From: a virus
Lineage: Duplodnaviria > Caudoviricetes
IMG/VR virus record: IMGVR_UViG_3300035390_000014
Coordinates: 32,001-96,000 of that record
Length of the DNA: 64,000 nt
Strand: one strand, 5' to 3'
Below are positions 4,870 to 60,503 of the stretch, piece by piece. Under the pieces are notes generated by a model, which did not search any database, was not told the origin of the DNA, and worked only from the letters and a program-made list of their open reading frames with translations. The position numbers and the translations under genes are program-made. Position 1 is the first letter of the stretch, and each line of letters opens with the position of its first letter.

Positions 4870-7800
4870 TTATCTCCATATCATTAAACTAATAAAATAA
4901 CTATTTAATAAATCTCTTACTGGTGATGCTTTGGGGTTTCTATATTTTGCACTACCTGTTTGTATAATATCTGATAATATTTCATTTTTTGTTTGAATGT
5001 CATCGCTTAGTGGTCCAAAAAATTCAGCAAGCAAATTTGGACAATTATATGATATAAAACTATAAGTATCAAGCTCACCCATTCTTTGTCCACCTTCACG
5101 TTTCTTACCAGCAGTAGGTTGAAATGTTTTGCTAGTCATTGGACCTGTTGATCGAGCATGAAGTTTATCCTTTGCAATATGTTCTAGTTTTAATATATAC
5201 ATGTACCCTATTGGCACTTTACTTTTTGTCTTAGTATTAAATTCTGGTAAAGACAAATTATAGCCTGATTTAAGGCCCAGTGATTTTAAACATGCTATTA
5301 TTTCTTTATAAGCAGGAGCTTTAAAAGGAGGAATTAAAATAGTCATACTACCTGAATCTTTAACTTGTTTCATAAATGTTTTAAATCGAACATCATTCAA
5401 TGCTTTAAATTTATTAATTAAATTTGTACTAAATTCTTTATTTTTTGTCATATCAAGATTTGGTAAAACTTTATGTAATAAAGCAATTACTTTAGGTTTA
5501 TCATTCAATTTAATTATTTGTCTACCTAATTCTTTTGAAATTAAACCGGTATATAATTCATATAGCTGACCAATATTCATACGACCAACTACACCGATAG
5601 GGTTTAAAATAATATCAACTTGATCTCCTGTTGGTGTTCTAGGCATAAGCTCATCCTTTTCGATAAGAGAAACAATACCCTTTGCTCCATGTCTATTGGT
5701 TAATTTATCACCAACTCCTACAGGCAATTCTTGCTCTAATTTAAACCTAATCATTACACCTGGAATAGTATCTCCTTTATGAGAAAACTTTTCATTATCT
5801 TTTAATCCATATCTTGTTCTTGTTCTTTTAGACAATTTATCTAATTCAGGAAATTTTCCTTCCTTTAGATTATTAAATACTTCTATATCAACTATTTTTC
5901 CACCAGGTGATTTTTTAATTAAATGGCCAGATACTATTTCAGTTCCTTCTTCATCTTCATCAAATCCAATTAATTGTTCAATTTCACCAATACTTTTTCT
6001 TAATAAAGGTTCGCCTTTTATAGTATCTTTTCCTAATTCATTTATAAAAACAACTCTATCTTCTTTGCCAATTTCAACTTCCTCTACTATACCATGTAAT
6101 GAATTAAGAACTCCCTCCCTTACAATTCTTTCAGATAATACAATACCATCCTCAAAATTAAATCCTTTGTATGGCATTAATGCAACACACATACTTCTAC
6201 CTAATGCAATCGCACCACCTGAAACACAAGACCCTTCTGCAATAATAGATTTTTCTTTTACAACTGATCCGGCCTTTACTGTAGGTTTAAAAACACTTAA
6301 TGTATCCTTTCCAGATCCAGATCTTAAATGAACAGGAGTTACTGGTATAACTTTATTGCCTCCAGTACTACATTGAATATATATAGCATCATCAGTTACT
6401 TTAGTTACTTTTCCATTACAAGGAGATTTTTTAATAAAGTCATCTGATAAAACACTTGTTAATATAGATTCATATCCTGATTGAATCATTGGTTGTTCTG
6501 GGTTTCTTAATGGAACCGCTTGTCTCATTTGACTACAACCAAACATTACTCTGTTCCCATCATCATTTTCAACAAATGGAATTTGAGCAGCTGTAGTTGA
6601 TAACATCCCAGAGTTCTCACCTTCTTTTTTCTCTTTGGATTGTATAATACCTCTTGCTGATGTTATAAAAGCATCAACAGTTAGCTGTTGTACAATACCA
6701 ACATTTTCACCTTCTGGTGTATCAAGTGTATCAATATTACCAAACATTGAGTCATGAACATTACGACCAGCATTTTGAATAGCTTGTTTATCAGGAATAC
6801 CACCAACGGCTTTACCTACTGGTGACACTCTTGTTTTAGTAGCCATTTCCTCAATAGGATTAGCATATTCCATATCAGCAACAATTTCTGAGTTAATAAA
6901 ATCGCTTAATACTTTGGTTTGAGAGATATCAAATATAGCTTTTTTATTACCAGATAGTACTTGTTCTTTATATTCAGTATGAGCTGCTAAAATTTGTTTT
7001 TGAGCAAGATGAACTATAACCTCAGAGTTTCTTATTCTCTGATTAGATACATCATTTCTTTTTTGTGTAAATCCTTCTACAACTTTAGTTGACATATATT
7101 TCATTATCAAATGTAATTCACTTGGTAATTGTTGATTAATTAATACTTGTTTTGCAACAGGATCAACTATATTTTCTAAATTGGATTGAATTAAGAATGT
7201 TGAATTAATACGGCCAGACATTTTAATAATTAAATTATTAAAATATTCATGAGATAAAAATTCTCCATTAATTTTTAATGAACTAATATCGACATGAATC
7301 AGTGATTGTACAATTTCTTCTTTTAGCTTCGTGTTAATATTTTCAAACAAAATCCATTGTTTATCATCAACTTTAACACTCCATTTGGTCTCTTTATCAG
7401 GTCTTTGGTCTGTTATCTTATACCTAATATCATATAATTGACATGACTCTTTAAAACCAAAACTGAAGCCTAAAAGGACTAATATTGGGACTTTATACGA
7501 TCCAATGTAAGCTTCTAAATATTCTTCCCTCTTAGTTCTTTTACTCCATATATGGAAAGTTGAATAAGAACTTTCAAATTTACTATCGTATAATTTAGGA
7601 AATGTTATTGGACATAAAACTAACTGATTAATAAGACATTTCTTTTTACCATTAATTTTAAAAGTTCCATCATTAGAAACATTAGGAACATCTAATAATA
7701 TTTCATGTTCTCTTTTAAATTTATCAACAACAACTACATGAATAGTACTAATATCAGATGGAGATAGATCGCCCGGTCTAATATGTTTCTTAACAACCTT

Positions 7801-8961
7801 AACACTTTTAAATGTTAATGGAACACCTTTTGTTTCCAAAACTTTAAATGAATTAACAATATCTTTCTTTAAATTTGTTTCAAAGTCAATTTTTCTTTTT
7901 TCAAAAATATGCTCAGGAGATTTATTTCCAACAGCTTTAGCTACATTGGATAATTGGATAACAATGTCTTCTGATGTGGATTCTGTTTTCTTAGGTTCCA
8001 ATAATTCATCTACATATTTTTTATCAATAACTTTCAATCCCATTGTTTTTTTAGAATCTGGAATACTAACTGCAGTTTGACGAGCTTTAATCATATCACC
8101 AGTTGATCTATATAATGCAGAAGCTATTGCTATATCTTTAGCATCATTATTTGTTAATTCATTGTTATGTGTTTTATCCAGTGATTTAGGATTTTTTTCA
8201 AAGAATTTTTGAATAGATTGTTTGAATTTAGATTTATTAGAAGGATCGATATCGCCTTCTATTTTTTTAATAATTATATTAGATGCTGTCTCTACTTTAC
8301 CATCAACTTCTTCTTCACCATCAATAACTTTGATATTTTTAAGATATAGATTAACTTTATTAAATTTTACATCTCTGTTTTTTATTAGTAGTCTATAACG
8401 GGAAGATGAATCACTAATAGTATTCATTATCAAATGATCATAATATAAATTATTTTTTTTAATTTCTAATATAAATGGGAACATTTTTCTATCAATATAT
8501 TTTGGAACATTTTTAGTTGCATCAACCGAGTATATAAATACTTTTTCATAACTATTTGGAAATGAACTAAAAATTTTATCAACTATATTTTTTAAAAGAA
8601 ACCCACCTCTTGCTCTATAGTTTTTCATTTTATATGATTCTTCCATTGATTGTAAAAACGGACTAAGATCATATATCAAATTCTGTCCTTGAGGTATTGC
8701 TTGAATCGAACTTGAGGCAACCAATCCATGAGCCTTATAAGTATTTTTAATTTCCGGAGTCATAGAACTAAATGGTATTTTAGTTTTTGGGATAATAACC
8801 TTTTTTGCATCAACTCGTAATAAATTCAATTTTGAATAATCATCTACAAATGTCGAATTTTCACTAAAGTAAACAATCAAAAAAGGATTCTTCTGAATTT
8901 GCGGAAATCTAATACCATTAACCACATGAGTAAATGGTTTCAGTGCTTTAAATTGAATCAT
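4870..8961 (-). CDS. rpoB: DNA-directed RNA polymerase beta subunit (single chain) with an N-terminal extension of about 300 aa
   Basis: Motifs GTFKING, DTPEGENVGI, DDGNRVMFGCSQMRQAVPL, GFNFEDGI, VGDKLTNRHGAKG, NPIGVVGRMNIGQ, GYMYILKL, GGQRMGELD. Confidence 0.97.
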   Translation of the reverse strand: MIQFKALKPFTHVVNGIRFPQIQKNPFLIVYFSENSTFVDDYSKLNLLRVDAKKVIIPKTKIPFSSMTPEIKNTYKAHGLVASSSIQAIPQGQNLIYDLSPFLQSMEESYKMKNYRARGGFLLKNIVDKIFSSFPNSYEKVFIYSVDATKNVPKYIDRKMFPFILEIKKNNLYYDHLIMNTISDSSSRYRLLIKNRDVKFNKVNLYLKNIKVIDGEEEVDGKVETASNIIIKKIEGDIDPSNKSKFKQSIQKFFEKNPKSLDKTHNNELTNNDAKDIAIASALYRSTGDMIKARQTAVSIPDSKKTMGLKVIDKKYVDELLEPKKTESTSEDIVIQLSNVAKAVGNKSPEHIFEKRKIDFETNLKKDIVNSFKVLETKGVPLTFKSVKVVKKHIRPGDLSPSDISTIHVVVVDKFKREHEILLDVPNVSNDGTFKINGKKKCLINQLVLCPITFPKLYDSKFESSYSTFHIWSKRTKREEYLEAYIGSYKVPILVLLGFSFGFKESCQLYDIRYKITDQRPDKETKWSVKVDDKQWILFENINTKLKEEIVQSLIHVDISSLKINGEFLSHEYFNNLIIKMSGRINSTFLIQSNLENIVDPVAKQVLINQQLPSELHLIMKYMSTKVVEGFTQKRNDVSNQRIRNSEVIVHLAQKQILAAHTEYKEQVLSGNKKAIFDISQTKVLSDFINSEIVADMEYANPIEEMATKTRVSPVGKAVGGIPDKQAIQNAGRNVHDSMFGNIDTLDTPEGENVGIVQQLTVDAFITSARGIIQSKEKKEGENSGMLSTTAAQIPFVENDDGNRVMFGCSQMRQAVPLRNPEQPMIQSGYESILTSVLSDDFIKKSPCNGKVTKVTDDAIYIQCSTGGNKVIPVTPVHLRSGSGKDTLSVFKPTVKAGSVVKEKSIIAEGSCVSGGAIALGRSMCVALMPYKGFNFEDGIVLSERIVREGVLNSLHGIVEEVEIGKEDRVVFINELGKDTIKGEPLLRKSIGEIEQLIGFDEDEEGTEIVSGHLIKKSPGGKIVDIEVFNNLKEGKFPELDKLSKRTRTRYGLKDNEKFSHKGDTIPGVMIRFKLEQELPVGVGDKLTNRHGAKGIVSLIEKDELMPRTPTGDQVDIILNPIGVVGRMNIGQLYELYTGLISKELGRQIIKLNDKPKVIALLHKVLPNLDMTKNKEFSTNLINKFKALNDVRFKTFMKQVKDSGSMTILIPPFKAPAYKEIIACLKSLGLKSGYNLSLPEFNTKTKSKVPIGYMYILKLEHIAKDKLHARSTGPMTSKTFQPTAGKKREGGQRMGELDTYSFISYNCPNLLAEFFGPLSDDIQTKNEILSDIIQTGSAKYRNPKASPVRDLLNSYFISLMIWR

Positions 8962-11422: not shown

Positions 11423-13765
11423 TTATTTTTCTAATCCAGACATTGGATCATTGTTAATTATATCTGCTAACATATCTCTTTTTATCAATGAAACAGCTCC
11501 ACCTGTATGGAATGTTTTCATGATAAGCTGTGTGCCTCTCTCTCCAATAATTTGAGCAGCAAGAATTCCAACATACGGGGTGTTATGTCTTTCTAATAAT
11601 TTACCATAACAAGTATGACAAATCTTTTGAGATTTACAGTATATAGGAGTTCTCAAACTTACAATATCTCCTAGTTTAAATTTGCCTTCATCAAATAACA
11701 TTAGCTTACCTTGTTTGATTACATAACGTCCTTTAAATCTTCCCATTAACATTTTATCTAACTTTACATCTAATGTTCTAGTTGTTCCGCAGTCTTTAGT
11801 AACCCTATCTAACTCAACTGTATTTAAAAGATATGCTAATTTACGAGACATATAGCCAGTATCAGCCGTATTGATAACCCTATCAATAATACCTTTACGT
11901 GCCCCTTGAGATGCGTCAAAGAATTCTCTATTAGACAAACCGTCTGCGAATGACCCTGATATAGGGTCTAAAACATTACCATCAGGATCAGCTATAACAC
12001 CCTTTGCAACCAATATCTGCATTGGTTGACCCCATCCTTTTGTTGATCCAGAATTAGCAAGATCACCAAACCCTGTATTATCTAAATGTTTTTCTAATAT
12101 TGTTTGAGCTTCTTCTAATAAAGTTTGAGCTTCTTCTGGGTTAGCGGTTTTTAATTTTTCTTTAATTTTTATAACAGAATCAGGTAATGCAAAATCATCT
12201 AAATTCATTGAAGGAGCCATAATTGTAGCCCATTTAAAACCAACATCTTTTAATTTATCAACAACTTGCTTTATTACTTCTCCACCGTGCTTTTCATAAG
12301 TTAATTCAATTCTAGCACCAATAGTTTTTTTAGTTGCTTGAGCTTCCATGAAACCAAGATCAGTAGGGAAACAACTATTAACAATTGCTTTACCCATTGT
12401 TGTGTTTACACCTCTATATTTAACAGCTATATATGGTTCTTTAGCATTAACTAAATCTTCATTTGATACTGCTAATGGAGAACCTGTGGCAGTTCTATCT
12501 TTTGTAATTGTGTATAAACCAGCCCAAATCTCTTTTGAAAGACCAAAAATAAATTCATTTGATGATGTACCACTTGTTAATTTCATCATTCTAGTTCTTG
12601 CTTCTTCCTGAGCTTCATTTGTTAGTGGATGATATATAGCCATTGTATCACCATCAAAATCGGCATTATGAACACCAACCTGAGTGGTTGACATAAGCAT
12701 TGTATCGCCTCTATGTAATACAGGGTTGTATGCTAAATAACTTTGAGTATGAAGAACTGGATCTCTTTTTACAACAACAATTCTACCCTTCATTGAAATT
12801 TCAGTTTGTTCAAAGAATAATTCATATAATTCTTCTGGCACTTTATCGCCTTCTTTAATACCTTTCATTACTCTTTTAACTGCTTCAACTGATAAATCCA
12901 TCCCGGTAAATTCTTTTACCCCATTTGATAAAACTTCTTTGTCAACTCTACCTGAATATAATAAACGGTGCATAATAAAAGGTTCAAATAAACCAATAGC
13001 TAATCTTAAAGGAACCCCACATTCATTTATAAGTAAATTAGGATCTGGTGTAATAACAGCACGCCCGGAAAAGTCAATACGCTTTCCAAGCATCTGTTCT
13101 CTAATAATTCCATGTTTTTTACCAATTTTAGATCTAATATAATTATCATGATCCATTACTGATTGGTGCATAGCATAATTTAATAAATCATATAATGGAC
13201 CTGAACCAGATGATCTTAGTTGTGATGCTCTTCTCATTAAAGCAAGATAAACATCATTTAAAGCATCTATCATCCAATTACCATCTTCCCCTTGTACAGC
13301 TGGTCTTAACTCAGGTGGTATAACAGGGATTTTATCAATAAAAATTGTATCATTTTTTGTTTCTCTTATAACAAATTTTATTAGTTTATCTCTTAATTCA
13401 GTCTCACCTCTCCATTTAATAGAGGGAAATAATTTAATAAACTCTTTTATACCAGTAACACCACCAGTTTCAACTATTTCTAACCTACCATCTTTATCTA
13501 ATATAAAAGATTCCTCAGTTGATATAAATTTTTCAATTTTTCTATCCAACTGAAGTAATACTCTATATACTGATGGATGAATAGCAAACCCATGTAATTC
13601 AATATATGAAAATAAAATTCTTCTATCTTTCGAACCATCTGGTCCAAATATTTCTTCGCTATATAAACCTTCCTCATGAAAATGACCAGTCTTAGTGGTA
13701 GTAATCATAGAGGTCACAGGTTTCAAATTCTGACTGAAATTAGATGGATTGAGTAATTTTAACAT
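11423..13765 (-). CDS. rpoC: RNA polymerase beta' subunit, N-terminal/catalytic fragment
   Basis: GLYSEEIFGP, IPVIPPELRP, LGKRIDFSGRAVI, catalytic NADFDGD, bridge helix GARKGIIDRVINTADTGYMSRKL, trigger loop GERGTQLIMKTFHTGG. Confidence 0.97.
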   Translation of the reverse strand: MLKLLNPSNFSQNLKPVTSMITTTKTGHFHEEGLYSEEIFGPDGSKDRRILFSYIELHGFAIHPSVYRVLLQLDRKIEKFISTEESFILDKDGRLEIVETGGVTGIKEFIKLFPSIKWRGETELRDKLIKFVIRETKNDTIFIDKIPVIPPELRPAVQGEDGNWMIDALNDVYLALMRRASQLRSSGSGPLYDLLNYAMHQSVMDHDNYIRSKIGKKHGIIREQMLGKRIDFSGRAVITPDPNLLINECGVPLRLAIGLFEPFIMHRLLYSGRVDKEVLSNGVKEFTGMDLSVEAVKRVMKGIKEGDKVPEELYELFFEQTEISMKGRIVVVKRDPVLHTQSYLAYNPVLHRGDTMLMSTTQVGVHNADFDGDTMAIYHPLTNEAQEEARTRMMKLTSGTSSNEFIFGLSKEIWAGLYTITKDRTATGSPLAVSNEDLVNAKEPYIAVKYRGVNTTMGKAIVNSCFPTDLGFMEAQATKKTIGARIELTYEKHGGEVIKQVVDKLKDVGFKWATIMAPSMNLDDFALPDSVIKIKEKLKTANPEEAQTLLEEAQTILEKHLDNTGFGDLANSGSTKGWGQPMQILVAKGVIADPDGNVLDPISGSFADGLSNREFFDASQGARKGIIDRVINTADTGYMSRKLAYLLNTVELDRVTKDCGTTRTLDVKLDKMLMGRFKGRYVIKQGKLMLFDEGKFKLGDIVSLRTPIYCKSQKICHTCYGKLLERHNTPYVGILAAQIIGERGTQLIMKTFHTGGAVSLIKRDMLADIINNDPMSGLEK

Positions 13766-17031: not shown

Positions 17032-18414
17032 TTATGCGAAATATCCTGGTTCATTTGTTTGTATTATTGGTGGATTTATAACTGATTCTAAAACGGTTGC
17101 TAATCCTTCTGAGGATTCTTCTATAGCTACATCAGCTTCTGCTAATTGAGTCTCCACTGTTTCAGAAAGAGAAGTTATATTTTCTTTAATATCATTAGGT
17201 ACATTTGATTCATCTAATAATGTGGCCACATCAAATGTACCATCGTCAGTAAGATACATATTTTTCAATGTAGCATTAACATATTTAATACTATCATCTA
17301 AATATTCTATATATGGGTCTTGGGAATCTTGAGCTAATGGTTTAGCTTCTTCATATGCAACTGCAAAAGCTGGAGTTTCTAACATAACTGGAATATCAGG
17401 ATAACCTGGAACATTTTCAATTCCTGGAAATTCATCAGTTTTAACAATAGGTAAAAGATCTTCAACTAATATCCCAGTACTAAGAGATGTTTTAATTTTA
17501 GTTAATGCACTAGAAAATGTTGAGTCTTTAACCATGTCAGTTATATATGGGTATCCAGGAATATCAGAAACATCTGCAAACTCTGGAAATTCAAATATCT
17601 CAAAACTAGTAACATCTGGTAATTTTTTTGTTGTTAAATCTTCAAATTTATCATAAATTTTTTTAAAATCTTCATCAGCAGTCATTGCTGATAAGTCTGG
17701 ATATCCAGCAAGATCTTTTAAAGATTCATAACCTGCTACAGTTGGGAAAGAAGAACTATTAAGGTCCGGGATACTTGGTACATCAAAATTTCTACCGCAA
17801 ATAGCTTCTATACAATTAAACAAACCATCAAAATTAGATAACAAATCTGCAATTCCAAGACTTTTTAAAATAGAATTAATTTCATTAATTAAAAAAGCTA
17901 TCGGTCCTTCTATTAAAGCTGATAATCCATCTAAAATACCATTCAATGCCTTACCTAATAAATCAGTTATAACATTTATAAAATCACTAACTAATTCTTC
18001 TATACTCATTAAACCATCAAGTAAATTACTTTTTAACAAACCACAATTTTGTAATATATTATCAATATCACTTGTATCAGGCACTGGAGGTATAGAACTT
18101 GACATTGTATCTTCAATTAAATTTGTGGCATCATCAATTTCATTAATTGGAGTAGCTGCCTCATTTTCTAAATTGCCCAATCCTGATTTTAATAAACCAA
18201 GAGGACCATTAACAGCAGCTTCGGCTCCTGATAATCCAGTAGAAATTTTATCAAGTTGATTGGTAAAATCTGTGCATACACTATTTGTCATTCCAGATAC
18301 TCCAGGTATGCCCAGCGCACCTAATCCATCTGACGATGGAAATTTTTCATTTATTGTGGCTCCAGTGGTTATAATGCTACTAATAGGAGTTGTTTCTAAT
18401 AATATATTAGTCAT
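17032..18414 (-). CDS. Acidic protein with three internal GYP repeats; probable baseplate/tail component
   Basis: Translationally coupled to the gp5-like gene; repeats LAGYPDL, IPGYPYI, VPGYPDI about 50 aa apart. Confidence 0.55.
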   Translation of the reverse strand: MTNILLETTPISSIITTGATINEKFPSSDGLGALGIPGVSGMTNSVCTDFTNQLDKISTGLSGAEAAVNGPLGLLKSGLGNLENEAATPINEIDDATNLIEDTMSSSIPPVPDTSDIDNILQNCGLLKSNLLDGLMSIEELVSDFINVITDLLGKALNGILDGLSALIEGPIAFLINEINSILKSLGIADLLSNFDGLFNCIEAICGRNFDVPSIPDLNSSSFPTVAGYESLKDLAGYPDLSAMTADEDFKKIYDKFEDLTTKKLPDVTSFEIFEFPEFADVSDIPGYPYITDMVKDSTFSSALTKIKTSLSTGILVEDLLPIVKTDEFPGIENVPGYPDIPVMLETPAFAVAYEEAKPLAQDSQDPYIEYLDDSIKYVNATLKNMYLTDDGTFDVATLLDESNVPNDIKENITSLSETVETQLAEADVAIEESSEGLATVLESVINPPIIQTNEPGYFA

Positions 18415-19298
18415 TATGTATCCCTCTTACCTGCAGGCACTGTTGGGTTTGCTTTTTCTACTGATGATGATGATCCTGTATTATCATTAATAACACCAGC
18501 ATCTCTCGCTATTATAGACCCAGCTTTAGTATGATGGCCTACACCTGCACCATCAATTATTGAAAGACCCGCTTTTCTATTATTTGATAAAACTGCTTCA
18601 GTATTAATATTTTGACCTTTAATATGAATATCTTTTTTAACATTTAAACTAAATTTTCCACCGCAATTAATATTTATATCATTTTTAAAATCAATTTGAA
18701 GGTTTTGTTGATCAATATCAATATGAATATAATCACCTTTATAGGTTCTTATTAAGATTTTTTCTCTTTTTTCTCTTTCATCTAATAATATAGTAGTTTG
18801 ATTATCATCAATCTTAGTTACAGATGTTACATCGCCAGAAGGAGGTTCTTTAATTAATCTTTTTTTCCCTGTTATTTCAACTCGAGCATCATCTGGATCA
18901 TCAGACATCATAATTGTTCGACCTTGATGACTTTTTAATATAACCCATTTATCTTCTGGGTTTGATCCTGTTTTACATTCTGGCAATACTGTAGTATTTT
19001 CTAAATCACATGATCCAAAATAATAAGGATTACTGGGATTACCTGCTTCAAAAAATACAAAAACCCAACTACCTTTTTTAGGAATAAATGATGACCCCAT
19101 ATAATGATGTTCTTCATCACCTTCCATATTTCTTCCACCAACTGGATTATTCGCCGGACTTGCTAACAATCCTCTGGTCGGTTCAACTTCTGGCATTATT
19201 TGAGGAATCCATACTGTTATACGACCATAGAATTTAGGGTCTCTATTCCCTACAACTAATGCTCTATAAAATCCATAAAGTTCATTTGATATATCCAT
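18414..19298 (-). CDS. Baseplate central spike (T4 gp5/VgrG-like OB fold plus beta-helix)
   Basis: YRALVVGNRDPKFYGRITVWIP, FIPKKGSWVFVFFEAGNPSNPYYFG, repetitive beta-strand C-terminus; no lysozyme domain. Confidence 0.88.
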   Translation of the reverse strand: MDISNELYGFYRALVVGNRDPKFYGRITVWIPQIMPEVEPTRGLLASPANNPVGGRNMEGDEEHHYMGSSFIPKKGSWVFVFFEAGNPSNPYYFGSCDLENTTVLPECKTGSNPEDKWVILKSHQGRTIMMSDDPDDARVEITGKKRLIKEPPSGDVTSVTKIDDNQTTILLDEREKREKILIRTYKGDYIHIDIDQQNLQIDFKNDININCGGKFSLNVKKDIHIKGQNINTEAVLSNNRKAGLSIIDGAGVGHHTKAGSIIARDAGVINDNTGSSSSVEKANPTVPAGKRDT

Positions 19299-36302: not shown

Positions 36303-37292
36303 TTAGCTTAAAATATTTGTACAGCTTATATTAATTGGAGTATCATTAAAATCTTTACCTGTTTTGTTATAATAAACATGTAAGGATTTAATTATGTGTT
36401 TATTATATTTCATAATTTTTTCATAGTAACTTATCGGTATTTCTCTATCTGAAAGAATATGTATTGTAGGTCTAAATATTAATTCATTGAAAATAACGCT
36501 TTTAATAGCTGCTACATATGAAGTTGATAATGCTGCTATATAAGCTCTTACTTTATTTTTTATACCTAATACATCATATATATGTTCCGCATATATATCA
36601 AATATTCCCTCTGCCATTATTATATGATTTGAATCTCTTCTATTTCCAAATAATTTATAATAGTCTAAAAGCTGGGAAGGTTGTAAATCTAATTTATAAT
36701 ATCTAAAATTTGATGTTCCATCTATATTTCTCAATGACACGCATGAATTATTTTCAGTTAAAAATCCAACAAAATTTGTATGCAAATAATCTTTAAATCT
36801 TATAACTTTTTCTGGTAATTGAATATTATTAATTTTTAATAATTCATTTACATCAAATACTAAACCTGGTACTGTTGATAGAGGTATATTAGCAAATTTA
36901 AATCTTTGTTTGATATATAAGGCTTTTAATTTAAAATAATCCTCTCTTAAGTCTGGTAAGGTTATATCTTTTGGTTTATAAATATTTTTTTCAAATTTTA
37001 CTTTTTCTACTTTAAAATGTTTAACTTGCTCCTGATTAACATATTTTATAGAAGTATCATTACCTTCTATTTTTTCTGTTAATTTTCTTATTAAACCACT
37101 TTGATTACACCCACCTCTAAAACAATGAAATATTGGATCATGTAGAGATATCCATAAATGACTTTTACTACTTGACATAGTTTTATCACACCAAGGACAA
37201 GGAACAATAATATTTTTAGGATTCATTTTAACTGGACCTAAATTTTGCTCCAAATAATCTATAAATCCATCATTATATATTCCTACTGTCAT
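36303..37292 (-). CDS. DNA primase (zinc finger plus TOPRIM)
   Basis: CPWC...HCFRGGC; IIMAEGIFD; ILSDRE. Confidence 0.88.
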   Translation of the reverse strand: MTVGIYNDGFIDYLEQNLGPVKMNPKNIIVPCPWCDKTMSSSKSHLWISLHDPIFHCFRGGCNQSGLIRKLTEKIEGNDTSIKYVNQEQVKHFKVEKVKFEKNIYKPKDITLPDLREDYFKLKALYIKQRFKFANIPLSTVPGLVFDVNELLKINNIQLPEKVIRFKDYLHTNFVGFLTENNSCVSLRNIDGTSNFRYYKLDLQPSQLLDYYKLFGNRRDSNHIIMAEGIFDIYAEHIYDVLGIKNKVRAYIAALSTSYVAAIKSVIFNELIFRPTIHILSDREIPISYYEKIMKYNKHIIKSLHVYYNKTGKDFNDTPINISCTNILS

Positions 37293-37528
37293 TTAATTAT
37301 CCTTTTTTTAAATGTATAACCATACATTACAAATGAGTGATTTCAACCAATACAATCAATTATATATTCAGAAAATGCCTGTCTAACATTGAATTTATTA
37401 TTTGTTCCACAATCAGGACAAATATTCTTAATTAAATGTTCAGTAGTTCCAAGACGAGATCTAGCATAAACTTTATCACATATCTCAGAACATATTGGTT
37501 TAACCAAACATTCTCTACATGGATACAT
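37289..37528 (-). CDS. Zinc-ribbon protein with in-frame TGA (37343-37345) at a CxxC position; candidate selenoprotein (79 aa)
   Basis: ...CPDCG...IIDCIG[TGA]NHSFVMYGYTFKKRIIK*; the read-through frame ends in an ATGA overlap with the primase start. Confidence 0.7.
37307..37333 (-). promoter_or_regulatory. Candidate bacterial-type SECIS element
   Basis: AAUGUAU-GGUU-AUACAUU perfect 7-bp stem; loop begins 21 nt after the UGA; extendable below a bulged U. Confidence 0.6.
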
Positions 37529-54934: not shown

Positions 54935-55828
54935 ATGAAAGAAGATGCTATACTTACGTTTCATGTTGGTGAATTTGGTTGGGAACTCCTTCGCTTCTGT
55001 CCACATGTATTATGGAATTATAGAATAAAATATAAAAGAAAAGTCAAACTAATAGTTTGTAGTAGACAAGAAAGATATGATTTATATGGAAAAGATGTAG
55101 ACGTCTTTCATCCATTTACATTGGATGAGCCTGGTATGAAACAAGATTGTTTTAAATTAACTGGTTTTAGAGATCAAGATTACTATGATTATTTAAATAC
55201 AATAGTTCAATTATATTCTAAAAAATATAATATAATTGATAAAATATATCCAAGCATTGAAAATAGAAAATATACTCAAAGAACTCAATTACCTATGAAT
55301 CAAATGGATTATAATTTTAATGTAAGAGAAAGTAATAAAGATATATACAAGTTTATGTATAAAAATGATAAACCTTCAATTGTTATAGCTCCGAGATATA
55401 GAGAAGGTGTTAAGAGAAATTGGCCACATTGGAAAGAATTTTATGATTTAATAGAACCATATAAAAAATATTTTAATTTTATAATATGTGGCAAAGAACC
55501 TGATGTAATATTGGATGATAGATATTATAAAGCAACATATGCTAATCCAGATTGGGATCATGAAGAAGAGTGGAGTTTAGTTGGGGTTATAATAGAAATA
55601 ATAAAAAATTCTGTTTTGACGATTGGTTCACAATCAGGAATTCCTAACCTTTCAAATCTTTTAGGAACTCCTACCTTACAGTGGGGACATGAAAGACATG
55701 AACATTCTAAAACTTATAATGTCAAAAATACGGAAACTATTTATATTGATGATCCTCTATATAACATTGATCCACATAAAATTATCAAAGAAATGACTAA
55801 ATTTTTAAAAGGAAAAGGACTAGTATGA
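54935..55828 (+). CDS. GT-B/GT9-like glycosyltransferase
   Basis: GEFGWEL; IVIAPR...RNWPHW; IGSQSGIPNLSNLLGTPT. Confidence 0.65.
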   Translation: MKEDAILTFHVGEFGWELLRFCPHVLWNYRIKYKRKVKLIVCSRQERYDLYGKDVDVFHPFTLDEPGMKQDCFKLTGFRDQDYYDYLNTIVQLYSKKYNIIDKIYPSIENRKYTQRTQLPMNQMDYNFNVRESNKDIYKFMYKNDKPSIVIAPRYREGVKRNWPHWKEFYDLIEPYKKYFNFIICGKEPDVILDDRYYKATYANPDWDHEEEWSLVGVIIEIIKNSVLTIGSQSGIPNLSNLLGTPTLQWGHERHEHSKTYNVKNTETIYIDDPLYNIDPHKIIKEMTKFLKGKGLV

Positions 55829-56271
55829 GAATTTTTATAGATATGGATAATACCATATGTAATTATATGAAAAAAAGAGAACAAGTGATACAAGCGTTAC
55901 CATCTATTAAATATCCTCAATCATTACCTAAATTTTTTGAAGATATGGAACCAATGAATGATGCTATAGAAGTAGTTAATTGGTTAAGAAAAATTCATGA
56001 TGTATATATTTTATCAGCTCCATCTGGAAAGAATGTACTTTCTTATACAGAGAAAAGAGTTTGGGTTGAAAAATATTTTGATTATGATTTAGCAGAGAGA
56101 TTAATATTATCTAATTATAAAGATTTTTTGAAAGGTGATGTTTTAATTGATGATCACAAAGACGGAAAGGGTCAGGATAGGTTTGAAGGTGAGCTTATTT
56201 TATACGGCGGATTAAAGTACCCAACATGGATGAAAATTAAACAAAAATTTGAAAAAGGGGTAACAAAATGA
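55825..56271 (+). CDS. 5'(3')-deoxyribonucleotidase (HAD)
   Basis: IFIDMDNT, ILSAP, EKRVWVEKY, LIDD. Confidence 0.9.
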   Translation: MRIFIDMDNTICNYMKKREQVIQALPSIKYPQSLPKFFEDMEPMNDAIEVVNWLRKIHDVYILSAPSGKNVLSYTEKRVWVEKYFDYDLAERLILSNYKDFLKGDVLIDDHKDGKGQDRFEGELILYGGLKYPTWMKIKQKFEKGVTK

Positions 56272-56480: not shown

Positions 56481-56883
56481 AAGTTTGACATTAAAAGTTA
56501 AATCTGAAGATGTTGAAATTATTAGAGAAGAAGACAGTGTTACAATCCATATAAAAAATGATGTTGCTTTAAATATAATTATGGATGGTGGTGGGATGAT
56601 TCATTCAAAAGATGATTTTTTTATTGCAGCAGAAGGTGAGTTAGGTTTAATGTCCTTTGGCAAACCCTTAACTATTGATTCAGTTGATAGTGTAATCCAT
56701 CAAAATTATAGAGAATCAAAATTGTTAAAAGACTTACCTGAATCAATTGAATTTAGAAAAAGATGTGACGAAGAAAATCAAAAATGTATCACATTTGCAG
56801 TTGATCAAGAAGGATTTAATAGACTATTAAAAGACAGAGTTACTATACTAGAACAACAAATGAGTAAACTTTTAGGAGAATAA
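56470..56883 (+). CDS. Hypothetical protein
   Basis: 137 aa ORF. Confidence 0.7.
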   Translation: MKNKSLTLKVKSEDVEIIREEDSVTIHIKNDVALNIIMDGGGMIHSKDDFFIAAEGELGLMSFGKPLTIDSVDSVIHQNYRESKLLKDLPESIEFRKRCDEENQKCITFAVDQEGFNRLLKDRVTILEQQMSKLLGE

Positions 56884-56887
56884 TATA

Positions 56888-57175
56888 ATGCCAGGAGTAG
56901 CAAGAAAAGATGATGTTTGTACTGGGCATGGGTGTTATCCATCAAGACCAAATACTAGTTGGTCATCTGACACTTTTGTAAATGGGCGAAATGTTCACAG
57001 AAAAGGCGACTCTTGGGCTGCACATTGTTGAGGTATTCCATGCCATGGAGGTTCCCTGGCTAGCGGCTCAAGCACACATTTTACAAATGGTAAACAAACC
57101 GGAAGATGTGGTGATCCTGTTAGTTGTGGTTCCTCCGTTGCCTCATGCTCTGGAAATACAATAGTAGGTGGATAA
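56888..57175 (+). CDS. PAAR spike-tip protein (gp5.4-like) with in-frame TGA (57029-57031); candidate selenoprotein (95 aa)
   Basis: Missed by the ORF track. MPGVARKDDVCTGHGCYPSRP...FVNGRNVHRKGDSWAAHC[TGA]GIPCHGGSLASGSSTHFTNGKQTGRCGDPVSCGSSVASCSGNTIVGG; AGGAG RBS; TAA abuts the next ATG. Confidence 0.88.
57042..57060 (+). promoter_or_regulatory. Candidate bacterial-type SECIS element
   Basis: GCCA-U-GGA-GGU-UCC-C-UGGC; the GGU loop occupies nt 19-21 after the UGA. Confidence 0.6.
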
Positions 57176-58201
57176 ATGGATATCATATTTAATTGTTTGG
57201 ATAGTGGATTAGGTAATAATGGTGGATCAAGGACAATTGTTCGATCAGCTAACACTTTATATAAAATGGGTCATAATGTTTGTATATTAAATCCAGAACC
57301 AAAACGTGTAAGAATGGGAGAATATATATCTTCATCTTATACATGGGACAAAATAGAAGTTCCAGTTTTACATAATATTAATGATGTTAATGTTAATGAT
57401 GTTATTATAGCGACGGCATTTTCTACTGTTAAATCTACAATGGAAGCTCCAGAAAAATTTGGAAAAAAAGTTCATTGGATAAGAGGTTGGGAAACATGGT
57501 CTCACTCTGAAAATTGGATTAAAGAAAATGTTTTGAATCAACCAACATTAAAAATAGTTAATTCTATTTGTATGAAAGATAAATTAAAAGAACATGGTGT
57601 AGACTCTCATATTATTAGACCTGGTTATGATTTCCATGAATTTTATCCTTTAAACGTAAGACAAAATAATAAAGTATTAACTATTGGTTGTTTATATTCA
57701 AAAGGAACTAAACGAGAATCTAAAAGAGTTGATTGGATTTTTAGAGCTGTTAAAGAAATTAAAAAAAAGATGAAAGTACGTTTAATCATGTATGGTTCAG
57801 AAGGTAAACCATCTGTAAATGATCCATTTGATGTATTTAGACCATCTCCATCCAAACAAGCAAAAAATAATATATATAATCATTGTGATATTTGGTTAGC
57901 TCCTACATGCAATGATTCTTTACATATGCCCCCTGCTGAAGCAATGCAAGCAGAATGTTGTGTAGTTGGTACTGATGCTCCAATGAATGGAATGAAAGAT
58001 TATTTAATTAATGCAGAAACTGGAATTGAATCATTTAATACATATGAATCATTTAGAGATTGTATTATTTATTGTTTATTAGTTGGTGAAGAAACAAGAA
58101 TTAAATTTGGAAAAGCAGGTAGAAAAAAGATATTATCCTTAGGTACACGTGAATATAATATGAACATATTAATAAACTATATAGAGGATAATATGTCATG
58201 A
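57176..58201 (+). CDS. GT4-like glycosyltransferase
   Basis: GGSRTIVRSANTL...GHNV; PPAEAMQAECCVVGTD. Confidence 0.85.
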   Translation: MDIIFNCLDSGLGNNGGSRTIVRSANTLYKMGHNVCILNPEPKRVRMGEYISSSYTWDKIEVPVLHNINDVNVNDVIIATAFSTVKSTMEAPEKFGKKVHWIRGWETWSHSENWIKENVLNQPTLKIVNSICMKDKLKEHGVDSHIIRPGYDFHEFYPLNVRQNNKVLTIGCLYSKGTKRESKRVDWIFRAVKEIKKKMKVRLIMYGSEGKPSVNDPFDVFRPSPSKQAKNNIYNHCDIWLAPTCNDSLHMPPAEAMQAECCVVGTDAPMNGMKDYLINAETGIESFNTYESFRDCIIYCLLVGEETRIKFGKAGRKKILSLGTREYNMNILINYIEDNMS

Positions 58202-58910: not shown

Positions 58911-60503
58911 ATGATGGTAAAAAAAATATCTTTTATAAAACTTATTAGATTATGGGGTATTATTTTTATAAGTTCACTTGTTGGTATTATTATTAGTATT
59001 GACATTATTATTACCTATAATGATTTTAATATTCGTATGGATACATTACGTACAAATTATATTAAACAACAAAAAAAAGATGTTAAACGTGAAGTTAATC
59101 GAGTTGTTGAGATGATTAGTTGTGAAAGAATGCAAGATAAAAATGATGAACATACAAAAAGAAGATGGTTAGAAAGAATTAATTATATACGTTTCGGAAA
59201 AAATGATAATGGATATTTATTCGCAGGATCGTGGGATGGAATTAGTCTTGCCCATGGAGATATACCCGAACTAATTGGTAAAGATATTTTAGATTTTACT
59301 GACAGTAAAGGCAATAAAACATCACAACTACTAATAGCTACTTCAAAAATTGAAGGTGGAGGATTTGTTCCTTTTTGGTGGATAAAACCAGATACAGGAA
59401 TAGAAAGTTCTAAGATTACATATGTTGAAGGAATACCAGACTGGGAAATGCTTATTGCTGCAGGAATTTATGATGATGATATAGAGCATGATATAACAAT
59501 TTTACATAATACATTAAATGAACAAATGATATCAAAAATTGGTGTTTTAATTATATTTATTATAATTACATTTTGTGTATTTATATTTCTATTTAATTTT
59601 TTAAGTGGTAAACTAAAAAAAGATTTTAATTTATTTATTTCATTTTTTAAAAATGCAGCTTTATCTGATAAAAAAATTGATAATAAATTTATTAACTATA
59701 TAGAGCTTGAACAAGTATCAGAATATATAAATCAGATGATACAAGATAAATCAGATGTTCAACAAACTATATCAGACGAAAGATTGAAAACTGAAAGACG
59801 TTTAGAACAATCAAGAAAAATGGAATCAATTGGAACATTAACGTCTGGTATTGCTCATGATTTTAATAATATTCTTTTTATAATAAAAGGTAATATTGAA
59901 TTATTGATGATGACTGATAAAAATGAAAAGTTTGATATAATAATAAAAGCTAGTAATCGAGCTATAAAATTAATTGAACAAATTACATCATTTAGTAGAC
60001 ATGATGATGTAGAATTAAAAGATGTTAATATAAAACCAATAATAGTAGAAAGTATTAATTTAAGCAAATCATCAATTTCAGAAAATACAAGCATTATAAG
60101 TGATATAAAAGATGGAAATTATATAGTTAAAACTGATGAAATAAAAATTGGACAAGTGGTTTTGAATTTAATAACAAATGCCTGTCATGCTGTTGAAGAT
60201 ATTGAAGGTAAAATTTTAATTAGTTTGAAAAATATAAATATTCATAATGGTGATTTAATTAAGAAAAATTTACCAAAAGGAGACTACGCTCAATTAAAAA
60301 TTACTGATAATGGGTGTGGGATTGATCCCGAAAATTTAGATAAAATATTTGATCCTTACTTTACTACAAAAGATATATCTAAAGGTACTGGATTAGGATT
60401 ATCTATTGTATATGGAATTATTAAAGAATCTAAAGGTTTTATTAATGTACAAAGTGAATTGAATATTGGAACTACTTTTGATATTTTTATCCCACTTGTT
60501 TAA
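58911..60503 (+). CDS. Membrane sensor histidine kinase with single Cache domain, no receiver domain
   Basis: Two TM helices around NGYLF...DG...HG...LIGK...D..G...WIKP; H-box GIAHDFNNIL; N-box QVVLNLITNA; DNGCGI; FTTK; GTGLGL. Confidence 0.93.
   Translation: MMVKKISFIKLIRLWGIIFISSLVGIIISIDIIITYNDFNIRMDTLRTNYIKQQKKDVKREVNRVVEMISCERMQDKNDEHTKRRWLERINYIRFGKNDNGYLFAGSWDGISLAHGDIPELIGKDILDFTDSKGNKTSQLLIATSKIEGGGFVPFWWIKPDTGIESSKITYVEGIPDWEMLIAAGIYDDDIEHDITILHNTLNEQMISKIGVLIIFIIITFCVFIFLFNFLSGKLKKDFNLFISFFKNAALSDKKIDNKFINYIELEQVSEYINQMIQDKSDVQQTISDERLKTERRLEQSRKMESIGTLTSGIAHDFNNILFIIKGNIELLMMTDKNEKFDIIIKASNRAIKLIEQITSFSRHDDVELKDVNIKPIIVESINLSKSSISENTSIISDIKDGNYIVKTDEIKIGQVVLNLITNACHAVEDIEGKILISLKNINIHNGDLIKKNLPKGDYAQLKITDNGCGIDPENLDKIFDPYFTTKDISKGTGLGLSIVYGIIKESKGFINVQSELNIGTTFDIFIPLV

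Follow-up and report, generated by a model that had tools for sequence, protein, structure and literature searches.

A UGA codon in the PAAR spike-tip gene of a sediment jumbo phage as a candidate site of host-decoded selenocysteine

Background

How could a phage make a complete spike tip from a gene that has a stop codon in its middle? The question is raised by a PAAR spike-tip gene in a 64,000-nt stretch of viral DNA (here called the window), which comprises bases 32001-96000 of the 202,719-bp IMG/VR virus record IMGVR_UViG_3300035390_000014 (rated 65% complete; 28.6% G+C). The source genome is a sediment jumbo phage. The gene (56888..57175, plus strand; ATG at 56888, TAA at 57173-57175) consists of 95 codons and the TAA. 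Codon 48 is an in-frame UGA (57029..57031, plus strand) in the context WAAHC*GIPCHGG; it is the sole in-frame TGA in the gene and is a candidate selenocysteine (Sec) codon.

The best reading of the evidence, to which we assign a probability of roughly 0.78, is that host-dependent Sec is placed at the UGA with the aid of host SelB. According to this predicted mechanism, the UGA at codon 48 would be decoded and would not cause termination. A hairpin inside the open reading frame (ORF), 11-29 nt downstream, would recruit SelB and tRNA-Sec from the host, and these would insert Sec into the spike tip. Different lineages would use a UGA at residue 16, 48 or 52, never at both members of a cysteine pair. 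Since there is one PAAR copy per virion, slow and inefficient Sec insertion would be affordable.

A PAAR spike tip with one in-frame UGA

An AGGAG Shine-Dalgarno sequence lies 8 nt upstream of the gene, and the TAA abuts the next ATG, at 57176. The ORF, the TGA and its context, the abutting TAA and ATG, and the hairpin had been described in a first-pass annotation made from the sequence by a model; all were confirmed. The read-through product matches the PF05488 PAAR_motif profile with 38.7 bits (cut-off 27; E = 1.2e-9), and with 40.8 bits in the genome scan. Its AlphaFold2 (AF2) model has the form of a PAAR cone (predicted local distance difference test, pLDDT, 96.7; predicted template modelling score, pTM, 0.86). 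Foldseek matches the model to the solved structures 9vyi, 9f4b, 4ku0, 4jiw and 4jiv with a template modelling score (TM) of 0.86-0.91 and a root mean square deviation of 1.2-2.0.

These solved tips are T4 gp5.4 (4KU0), P1 UpfC (9VYI), the tip of Klebsiella phage KP1 (9F4B), V. cholerae VCA0105 (4JIV) and E. coli c1882 (4JIW), the last two being PAARs of type VI secretion systems (T6SS). They have the same size of about 95 residues and the same fold as the window PAAR, and they share its His/His/His/Cys ligand positions. Four columns are invariant in 61 sequences: His14 (56927..56929), a putative Zn ligand, and the further putative ligands His46 (57023-57025), His53 (57044-57046) and Cys80 (57125-57127), all encoded on the plus strand. 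H14, H46, H53 and C80 align to the His/His/His/Cys of 9vyi, 4jiv and 9f4b. We take them to be metal ligands, a role described in the PAAR structure literature; binding in the window protein is putative. Judged by this alignment, a conserved site of three His and one Cys is present near the apex of the window PAAR.

The first-pass annotation connected the UGA with metal binding by the Cys and His residues around it. That part of the proposal was not upheld, as residue 48 is not among the invariant H14, H46, H53 and C80; with the invariant positions elsewhere, a metal-ligand role for it is not supported. On the alignment and model, residue 48 is placed in the apex loop between two ligand histidines and is not itself a conserved ligand. 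It is instead, as the homologues indicate, a member of an accessory Cys pair (16-48) specific to this PAAR subfamily. The solved tips have no Cys at 16, 47, 48 or 52, whereas the subfamily of the window adds two co-varying Cys pairs around the apex. Also unlike the solved tips, one pair member in this subfamily may be UGA-encoded.

UGA replaces cysteine in divergent relatives

Among 119 full-length homologues, column 48 holds Cys in 86, Asn or Asp in 27 and an apparent Trp ('W') in three. In two of the three 'W' entries the codon proved to be TGA, translated under genetic code 4, and the third has no DNA to check; there is no verified TGG at column 48 among the 119 homologue proteins. Genes with TGA were sought using a pattern made only of residues upstream of the codon, so the RNA downstream is unbiased. 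About 31 distinct full-length PAAR genes with TGA at codon 48 were found on viral and metagenomic contigs from independent assemblies, and the frame is kept to a normal stop in all of them. Seven of the roughly 31 contain a second TGA four or five codons further on, at the next conserved Cys (residue 52). In about ten further homologues the UGA is at codon 16 and residue 48 is Cys; some of these are without any 47/52 pair. Two forms carry UGA at both 16 and 52. Other homologues have Cys codons at columns 16, 48 and 52, an alternation of the Sec/Cys type. The first-pass annotation had suggested looking in homologues for alternation of TGA with Cys codons, accompanied by compensatory changes in the hairpin; both were found.

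The window belongs to a 15-member clade that consists of UGA forms only (Shimodaira-Hasegawa-like approximate likelihood ratio test, SH-aLRT, 97). Across the family tree the UGA state needs about eight changes, of which at least three are forced by strongly supported branches. A scan of named genomes with the pattern gave 66 matches; one is a true TGA-PAAR, in a Desulfobacter metagenome-assembled genome (MAG).

Two variants of the gene were noted among the relatives. A true TGG (Trp) at codon 16 is found in one lineage (L410:1501-1791 and L411:748-1038), within a P2-like baseplate module; Cys48 is kept and there is no local hairpin. This TGG would most simply be an escape mutation, one transition away from TGA. 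Two UGA-form PAAR genes on metagenome contigs (L112:3286 onward and L141:3446 onward) extend about 250 residues beyond the PAAR domain. The C-terminal extensions have cell-wall-peptidase-like motifs, and the products may be a Sec-PAAR fused to a lytic domain.

Of the explanations that do without selenium, the most durable is plain read-through, in which the UGA is decoded at low efficiency by a near-cognate tRNA (for example tRNA-Trp) or another standard tRNA, with a hairpin that delays the ribosome or obstructs the release factor. UGA is the leakiest stop codon in bacteria. The phage encodes a tRNA-Trp(CCA), a real TGG is present at codon 16 in one lineage, and low efficiency would be enough for one PAAR copy per virion. 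The distribution of the codon argues against it: TGA alternates with Cys codons and not with TGG, and UGA is found only at three Cys columns (16, 48 and 52) of two co-varying pairs. Two unrelated genes of the same phage also put UGA on a conserved Cys, the geometry of the hairpin matches that of a SelB-binding selenocysteine insertion sequence (SECIS), and one complete phage has the UGA but zero tRNA genes (see below). Read-through of this kind is improbable, although it deserves more weight than any other alternative.

A SECIS-like hairpin follows the UGA

The SECIS-like upper hairpin, GCCA-U-GGA-[GGU]-UCC-C-UGGC, is located at 57042..57060 (plus strand) and spans +11 to +29 after the UGA. 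Its unpaired U is at 57046 (+15) and its loop GGU at 57050-57052 (+19-21). A lower helix is possible by inference from folding: the RNAfold minimum free energy (MFE) structure pairs CUCA (57067..57070, plus strand) with UGAG (57029-57032), weakly and in a register that varies among homologues. In several relatives a GGN-UCN-UCA stretch further downstream pairs with the region of the UGA, in differing registers.

The hairpin is closely comparable to that of E. coli K-12 fdhF, whose DNA was read for the comparison: there the hairpin extends from +12 to +28, the U at +14/15 is unpaired and GGUC at +19-22 forms the loop. The position of the GGU at nt 19-21 after the UGA, which the first-pass annotation had likened to fdhF, is borne out by this comparison. 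Common to both genes are an in-frame UGA at a position where homologues have Cys, an in-ORF hairpin starting 11-12 nt after the UGA, an unpaired 5' U at +14/15, and GGU at +19-21 in the apical loop. They differ in that the PAAR loop has 3 nt and the fdhF loop 4; the side opposite the unpaired U forms a 1x1 mismatch in PAAR, whereas the U is a bulge in fdhF. Unlike the fdhF system, the PAAR gene is carried by a phage without Sec machinery, and its product is a structural virion protein. The fdhF-like hairpin suggests that the window gene is directly testable in E. coli.

It had been cautioned that GGA GGT TCC merely encodes a conserved Gly-Gly-Ser, so that the hairpin could be coincidental. This objection is answered by a peptide-matched test of genes encoding xxxCHGG[S/T/A]LA, where three free codon positions decide whether the 7-bp hairpin can form. 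It forms in 11 of 11 UGA forms and in none of the six Cys forms that encode the same peptide (p = 8e-5). Together with the TGA shared by about 31 homologues, this puts the pattern well outside what chance would produce. When run unguided, RNAalifold returns the same hairpin, with 77/77 cells paired. The innermost pair (21:25) is U-A in five sequences, A-U in three and C-G in three, and one of the switches is between sister sequences. The covariation score is reached by no shuffle, and the signal collapses when the register is slid. The arms are built of codons that are rare in this AT-rich phage: TGC accounts for 11% of Cys, TCC for 4% of Ser and CTG for 2% of Leu codons.

The family as a whole shows a similar tendency. 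The best local hairpin within 60 nt has a median energy of -10.1 kcal/mol in 33 UGA forms vs -7.4 kcal/mol in 87 matched Cys forms (p = 0.0016); the MFE of the whole region gives a modest separation of the TGA and Cys forms (p about 0.01-0.02), less sharp than those of the best-hairpin and peptide-matched tests. Loop positions fall into two groups, +19-21 (class 1, to which the window belongs) and about +29-33 (class 2). Codon-16 UGA forms have hairpins of their own, located between +12 and +27, in which GGUU and GGUC are among the loops and the stems show compensating changes (GCCUUC/GAAGGC vs UCCCUC/GAGGGA). It is almost certain that the UGA is decoded by a programmed, hairpin-dependent mechanism. 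That the inserted residue is Sec and not another amino acid is what we infer from the sequences.

Cysteine pairs at the cone apex

The putative partner of residue 48 is Cys16 (codon 56933..56935, plus strand). Cys47 (57026..57028, plus strand) co-varies with Cys52 (57041..57043, plus strand), which is encoded by TGC here and by UGA in about eight relatives; the G and C of this TGC belong to the 5' arm of the hairpin. The co-occurrence counts are 86/0/3/30 for Cys16 vs Cys/UGA48 and 83/3/0/33 for Cys47 vs Cys52, and cross-combinations are not positively linked; such raw counts overstate the evidence, and their Fisher p-values are not to be taken at face value. The states of each pair were also counted over 128 distinct sequences (C, Cys; U, UGA). 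The 16-48 pair is CC in 89, CU in 39 and UU in 0; the 47-52 pair is CC in 100, CU in 8 and UU in 0. UGA is confined to the three Cys columns of these two pairs.

A selenylsulfide link or redox couple would be consistent with there being one Sec per pair. Residue 48 and Cys16 may form such a link or redox pair beside the Zn site at the cone apex, with Cys47-Cys52 as a second pair; this assignment is tentative, and we hold it at somewhat less than even odds. The codon-16 UGA forms would be an independent line that supports the 16-48 pairing. Sec-Cys redox pairs are familiar from known selenoproteins, such as the C-terminal Cys-Sec of thioredoxin reductase and the CxxU motifs. The PAAR pairs are like these in having one Sec per Cys partner, as no PAAR pair has two UGAs. 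They are unlike them in spacing and setting: the PAAR partners are 32 (16, 48) or 5 (47, 52) residues apart, within a beta-cone and next to a Zn site. Nothing points to catalysis by the PAAR pairs, and bonding is proposed from co-variation only.

Selenocysteine machinery and the host

Genes for Sec machinery were sought in the record (G000) and in two complete TGA-PAAR phages of 356 kb and 195 kb (G001 and G002). None of the three has a tRNA-Sec (RF01852) above threshold, a match to the SelA, SelB or SelD profiles (TIGR00474, TIGR00475 and TIGR00476), or a tRNA with a UCA anticodon or other opal suppressor. The first-pass annotation had proposed that the phage borrows the Sec machinery of its host, and phage records without tRNA-Sec, SelA, SelB and SelD agree with this. 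The complete 195 kb phage G002 has a TGA-PAAR and zero tRNA genes.

The Desulfobacter MAG is the only named genome with a UGA-PAAR, and host inference for the family rests on this one case. The gene is part of a P2-like prophage tail module, between gpV and GpU/gp25/J/I. SelB (347 bits) and tRNA-Sec (73.6 bits) are both encoded in the MAG, as are two SelD genes that each carry a TGA in frame. One of these (L413; G004:C11:12125-13054) has the UGA in the context TCG-U-AAK, followed by the SECIS hairpin GUCCCCAG-[GUG]-CUGG-C-GGAC, which starts at +14; the other is L412.

A second alternative is decoding of the UGA by the Sec machinery of the host, standard or variant, with Cys or some other residue delivered and SelB merely gating synthesis. 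Sec-system variants with a Cys-charged, tRNA-Sec-like tRNA are described in some bacteria, and every UGA site in the PAAR family is a Cys column. There is, however, no such tRNA in the phage records, and a rarer host system than standard Sec would be required. The Desulfobacter host also has standard tRNA-Sec and SelB, and SelD genes that contain UGA. Delivery of a residue other than Sec by this route is very unlikely.

Several observations weigh against Sec at codon 48. Trp is evidently tolerated at codon 16, where one lineage has a true TGG. The amino-acid sequence dictates four of the seven hairpin pairs, which leaves the three free positions to carry the signal. The third base of the loop varies (GGU or GGA). 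An Rfam scan of 56700-57400 at E up to 10 returned no SECIS family, with chance snoRNA and miRNA matches only; for a hairpin of 19 nt this negative is weak. Class-2 relatives have the loop at about +31-33, some 12 nt further downstream, and in the Desulfobacter MAG the PAAR loop is at +31-33 vs +22-24 for the SECIS loop of SelD in the same genome. The co-variation of the Cys pairs rests on 2/2 and 3/3 well-supported independent contrasts, which are all concordant but underpowered. Finally, a Sec pathway in the host of the window's phage is assumed.

An intact gene in the standard code

The remaining alternatives question the gene, the code or the base itself. If the gene were broken, the UGA would mark a PAAR pseudogene or end a truncated product of 47 residues, and Gly-Gly-Ser-Leu-Ala codons would have produced the hairpin by coincidence. 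The window by itself does show a small gene with one stop, and the peptide accounts for four of the seven hairpin pairs. The relatives tell otherwise. In about 40 divergent genes a Cys column is occupied by UGA while the frame stays intact to a normal stop, and identities of 50-80% together with differing genomic contexts exclude copies of a single dead element. In the clade of the window, the ratio of nonsynonymous to synonymous polymorphism (pN/pS) has a value of 0.38 before the UGA and 0.46 after it, synonymous sites being close to saturated; by this measure the PAAR half 3' of the UGA is under purifying selection. H53 and C80 are encoded downstream of the UGA, so a 47-residue product would lose two of the four invariant ligand positions and could not fold as a PAAR cone. 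The hairpin is missing from Cys forms with the same peptide. An intact second PAAR gene, which the first-pass annotation noted would reduce this one to a pseudogene, was not found by profile and protein searches of the 202.7 kb record. A broken gene is highly improbable.

A code-wide change, with TGA as a sense codon (code 4-like) or read by an opal suppressor, was also considered. Gene callers translated several of the homologues under code 4, and the phage has a suppressor-like tRNA, although its CUA anticodon would read amber and not opal. This explanation was rejected as a global one: TGA is a frequent stop that terminates 49 of 231 long ORFs of the record (21%), the standard code gives 87-91% long-ORF coverage, and G002 is without tRNAs. 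In-frame TGA is found in only three genes of the record, always at Cys columns, and there is no tRNA with a UCA anticodon. A changed code has scarcely any probability left. Stop-codon-recoded phages, in which TAG is reassigned to Gln (code 15) or TGA to Trp (code 4), have been described (PMC9523058). The present phage is like them in that a gene needs a stop to be read as sense and is mishandled by gene callers. It is unlike them in that recoding is single-site, with UGA on Cys columns accompanied by local hairpins and no opal suppressor.

The weakest alternative, a sequencing or assembly error for TGT or TGC, is negligible, as a 168-nt Logan contig from a sediment metagenome of another study covers 56978-57145 with 0 differences, TGA included, and dozens of independent assemblies likewise have TGA at this codon. 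The first-pass annotation had itself named a base-call error as a possible cause, which the identical base in an independent sediment sample speaks against. Logan contigs with the locus come from two sediment metagenomes; one may be the source sample and the other is from the different study. No RNA runs holding the locus were found.

With these alternatives set aside, host-decoded Sec directed by an in-ORF hairpin into the virion tip, as put forward in the first-pass annotation, is supported as a prediction by the alternation of UGA and Cys, the compensatory hairpin changes and the selected downstream frame.

Other UGA-at-cysteine genes in the phage

Two further genes of the phage have a UGA in place of a conserved Cys. 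The first is a small double-CxxC (zinc-ribbon-like) gene (37292..37528, minus strand) with TGA at the last Cys (37343-37345). It is followed by the hairpin AAUGUAU-[GGUU]-AUACAUU (37311-37328, minus strand), a perfect 7-bp stem with the loop GGUU at +22-25. A 70%-identical homologue shares the TGA and the hairpin, whereas a 47%-identical homologue has TGT and no hairpin. The gene is located just upstream of a 329-aa ORF (36303-37292), and its public gene call ends at the UGA (61 aa).

The second is a homing-endonuclease-like gene outside the window (G000:C1:151840-152694, equal to L378:1041-1895) with TGA at codon 29. The UGA belongs to an N-terminal Cys motif and replaces a residue that almost all of some 50 homologues keep as Cys. 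After the UGA comes an 8-bp stem whose loop, AGGUC, occupies +19-23 and has its GGU at +20-22. In the public annotation the gene is called from a start beyond the UGA (232 aa).

Implications for phage particles

To our knowledge, natural selenoproteins have been described in cells and in a small number of eukaryotic viruses. Redox enzymes make up nearly all of them, bacterial ones included. Literature searches found no published report of a PAAR selenoprotein or of a selenoprotein in a phage virion. PAAR tips could be a widespread, undescribed family of phage-particle selenoproteins, in which non-catalytic Sec serves as one selenylsulfide staple per Cys pair at the membrane-piercing apex, with at least three host-Sec-decoded genes in this phage. 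This full proposal is speculative, and somewhat more likely to fail in one of its parts than to hold in all. Predicted tRNA-Sec genes have been noted in huge phages (PMC10747093).

If the proposal is true, anaerobic hosts, whose cytoplasm would be too reducing for disulfides, could still allow a selenylsulfide to arise and last. The SelB and selenium supply of the host would govern infectivity, and phages would be exploiting a host recoding pathway that they do not encode. The first-pass annotation had also raised the possibility that tail assembly might come to depend on host selenium status. Selenium biology would reach phage virions, with uncultured phages and prophages by the dozen as examples. 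A Cys pair in which UGA alternates from one member to the other would provide a natural experiment on the use of Sec over Cys outside catalysis.

The genes are also poorly served by current annotation. Gene callers split or mistranslate UGA-PAAR genes, and public entries show 'W' under code 4 or are truncated. Phage selenoproteins would be systematically hidden by such mis-calls.

Gene neighbourhood and phage genome

In relatives, PAAR follows the gene for the gpV spike within a P2-like baseplate module. In the phage of the window, by comparison, it is outside any baseplate module, among glycosyltransferase genes. Its upstream neighbour is a 5'-nucleotidase-like gene (window 55825-56271). The ATG that abuts the PAAR stop codon belongs to a group-1 glycosyltransferase (window 57176-58201, plus strand). 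Two genes downstream of PAAR is a 530-aa Cache-domain sensor histidine kinase (dCache/sCache, HisKA, HATPase_c; window 58911-60503, plus strand). A gpV-like OB match in this phage is at about 18414-19298 of the window (minus strand); it is weak (17.8 bits).

The surrounding genome has genes of the kind found in jumbo phages, including a split multisubunit RNA polymerase, a UvsX-like recombinase, ribonucleotide reductase and a Dda-like helicase. Two ORFs for phage multisubunit RNA polymerase beta/beta'-like proteins (window 4870-8961 and 11423-13765, both minus strand) were identified by PHROG match, as in phiKZ-like jumbo phages.

The record carries 26 tRNAs and a transfer-messenger RNA (tmRNA; tag ADNFADDYALAIAA), all outside the window, in a cluster at G000:C1:106367-147743. 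The cluster includes the CUA-anticodon tRNA, a would-be amber suppressor; TAG nonetheless terminates 29 of the 231 long ORFs of the record. Some tRNAs in the cluster are unusually long (Lys 92 nt, Met 89 nt and His 87 nt).

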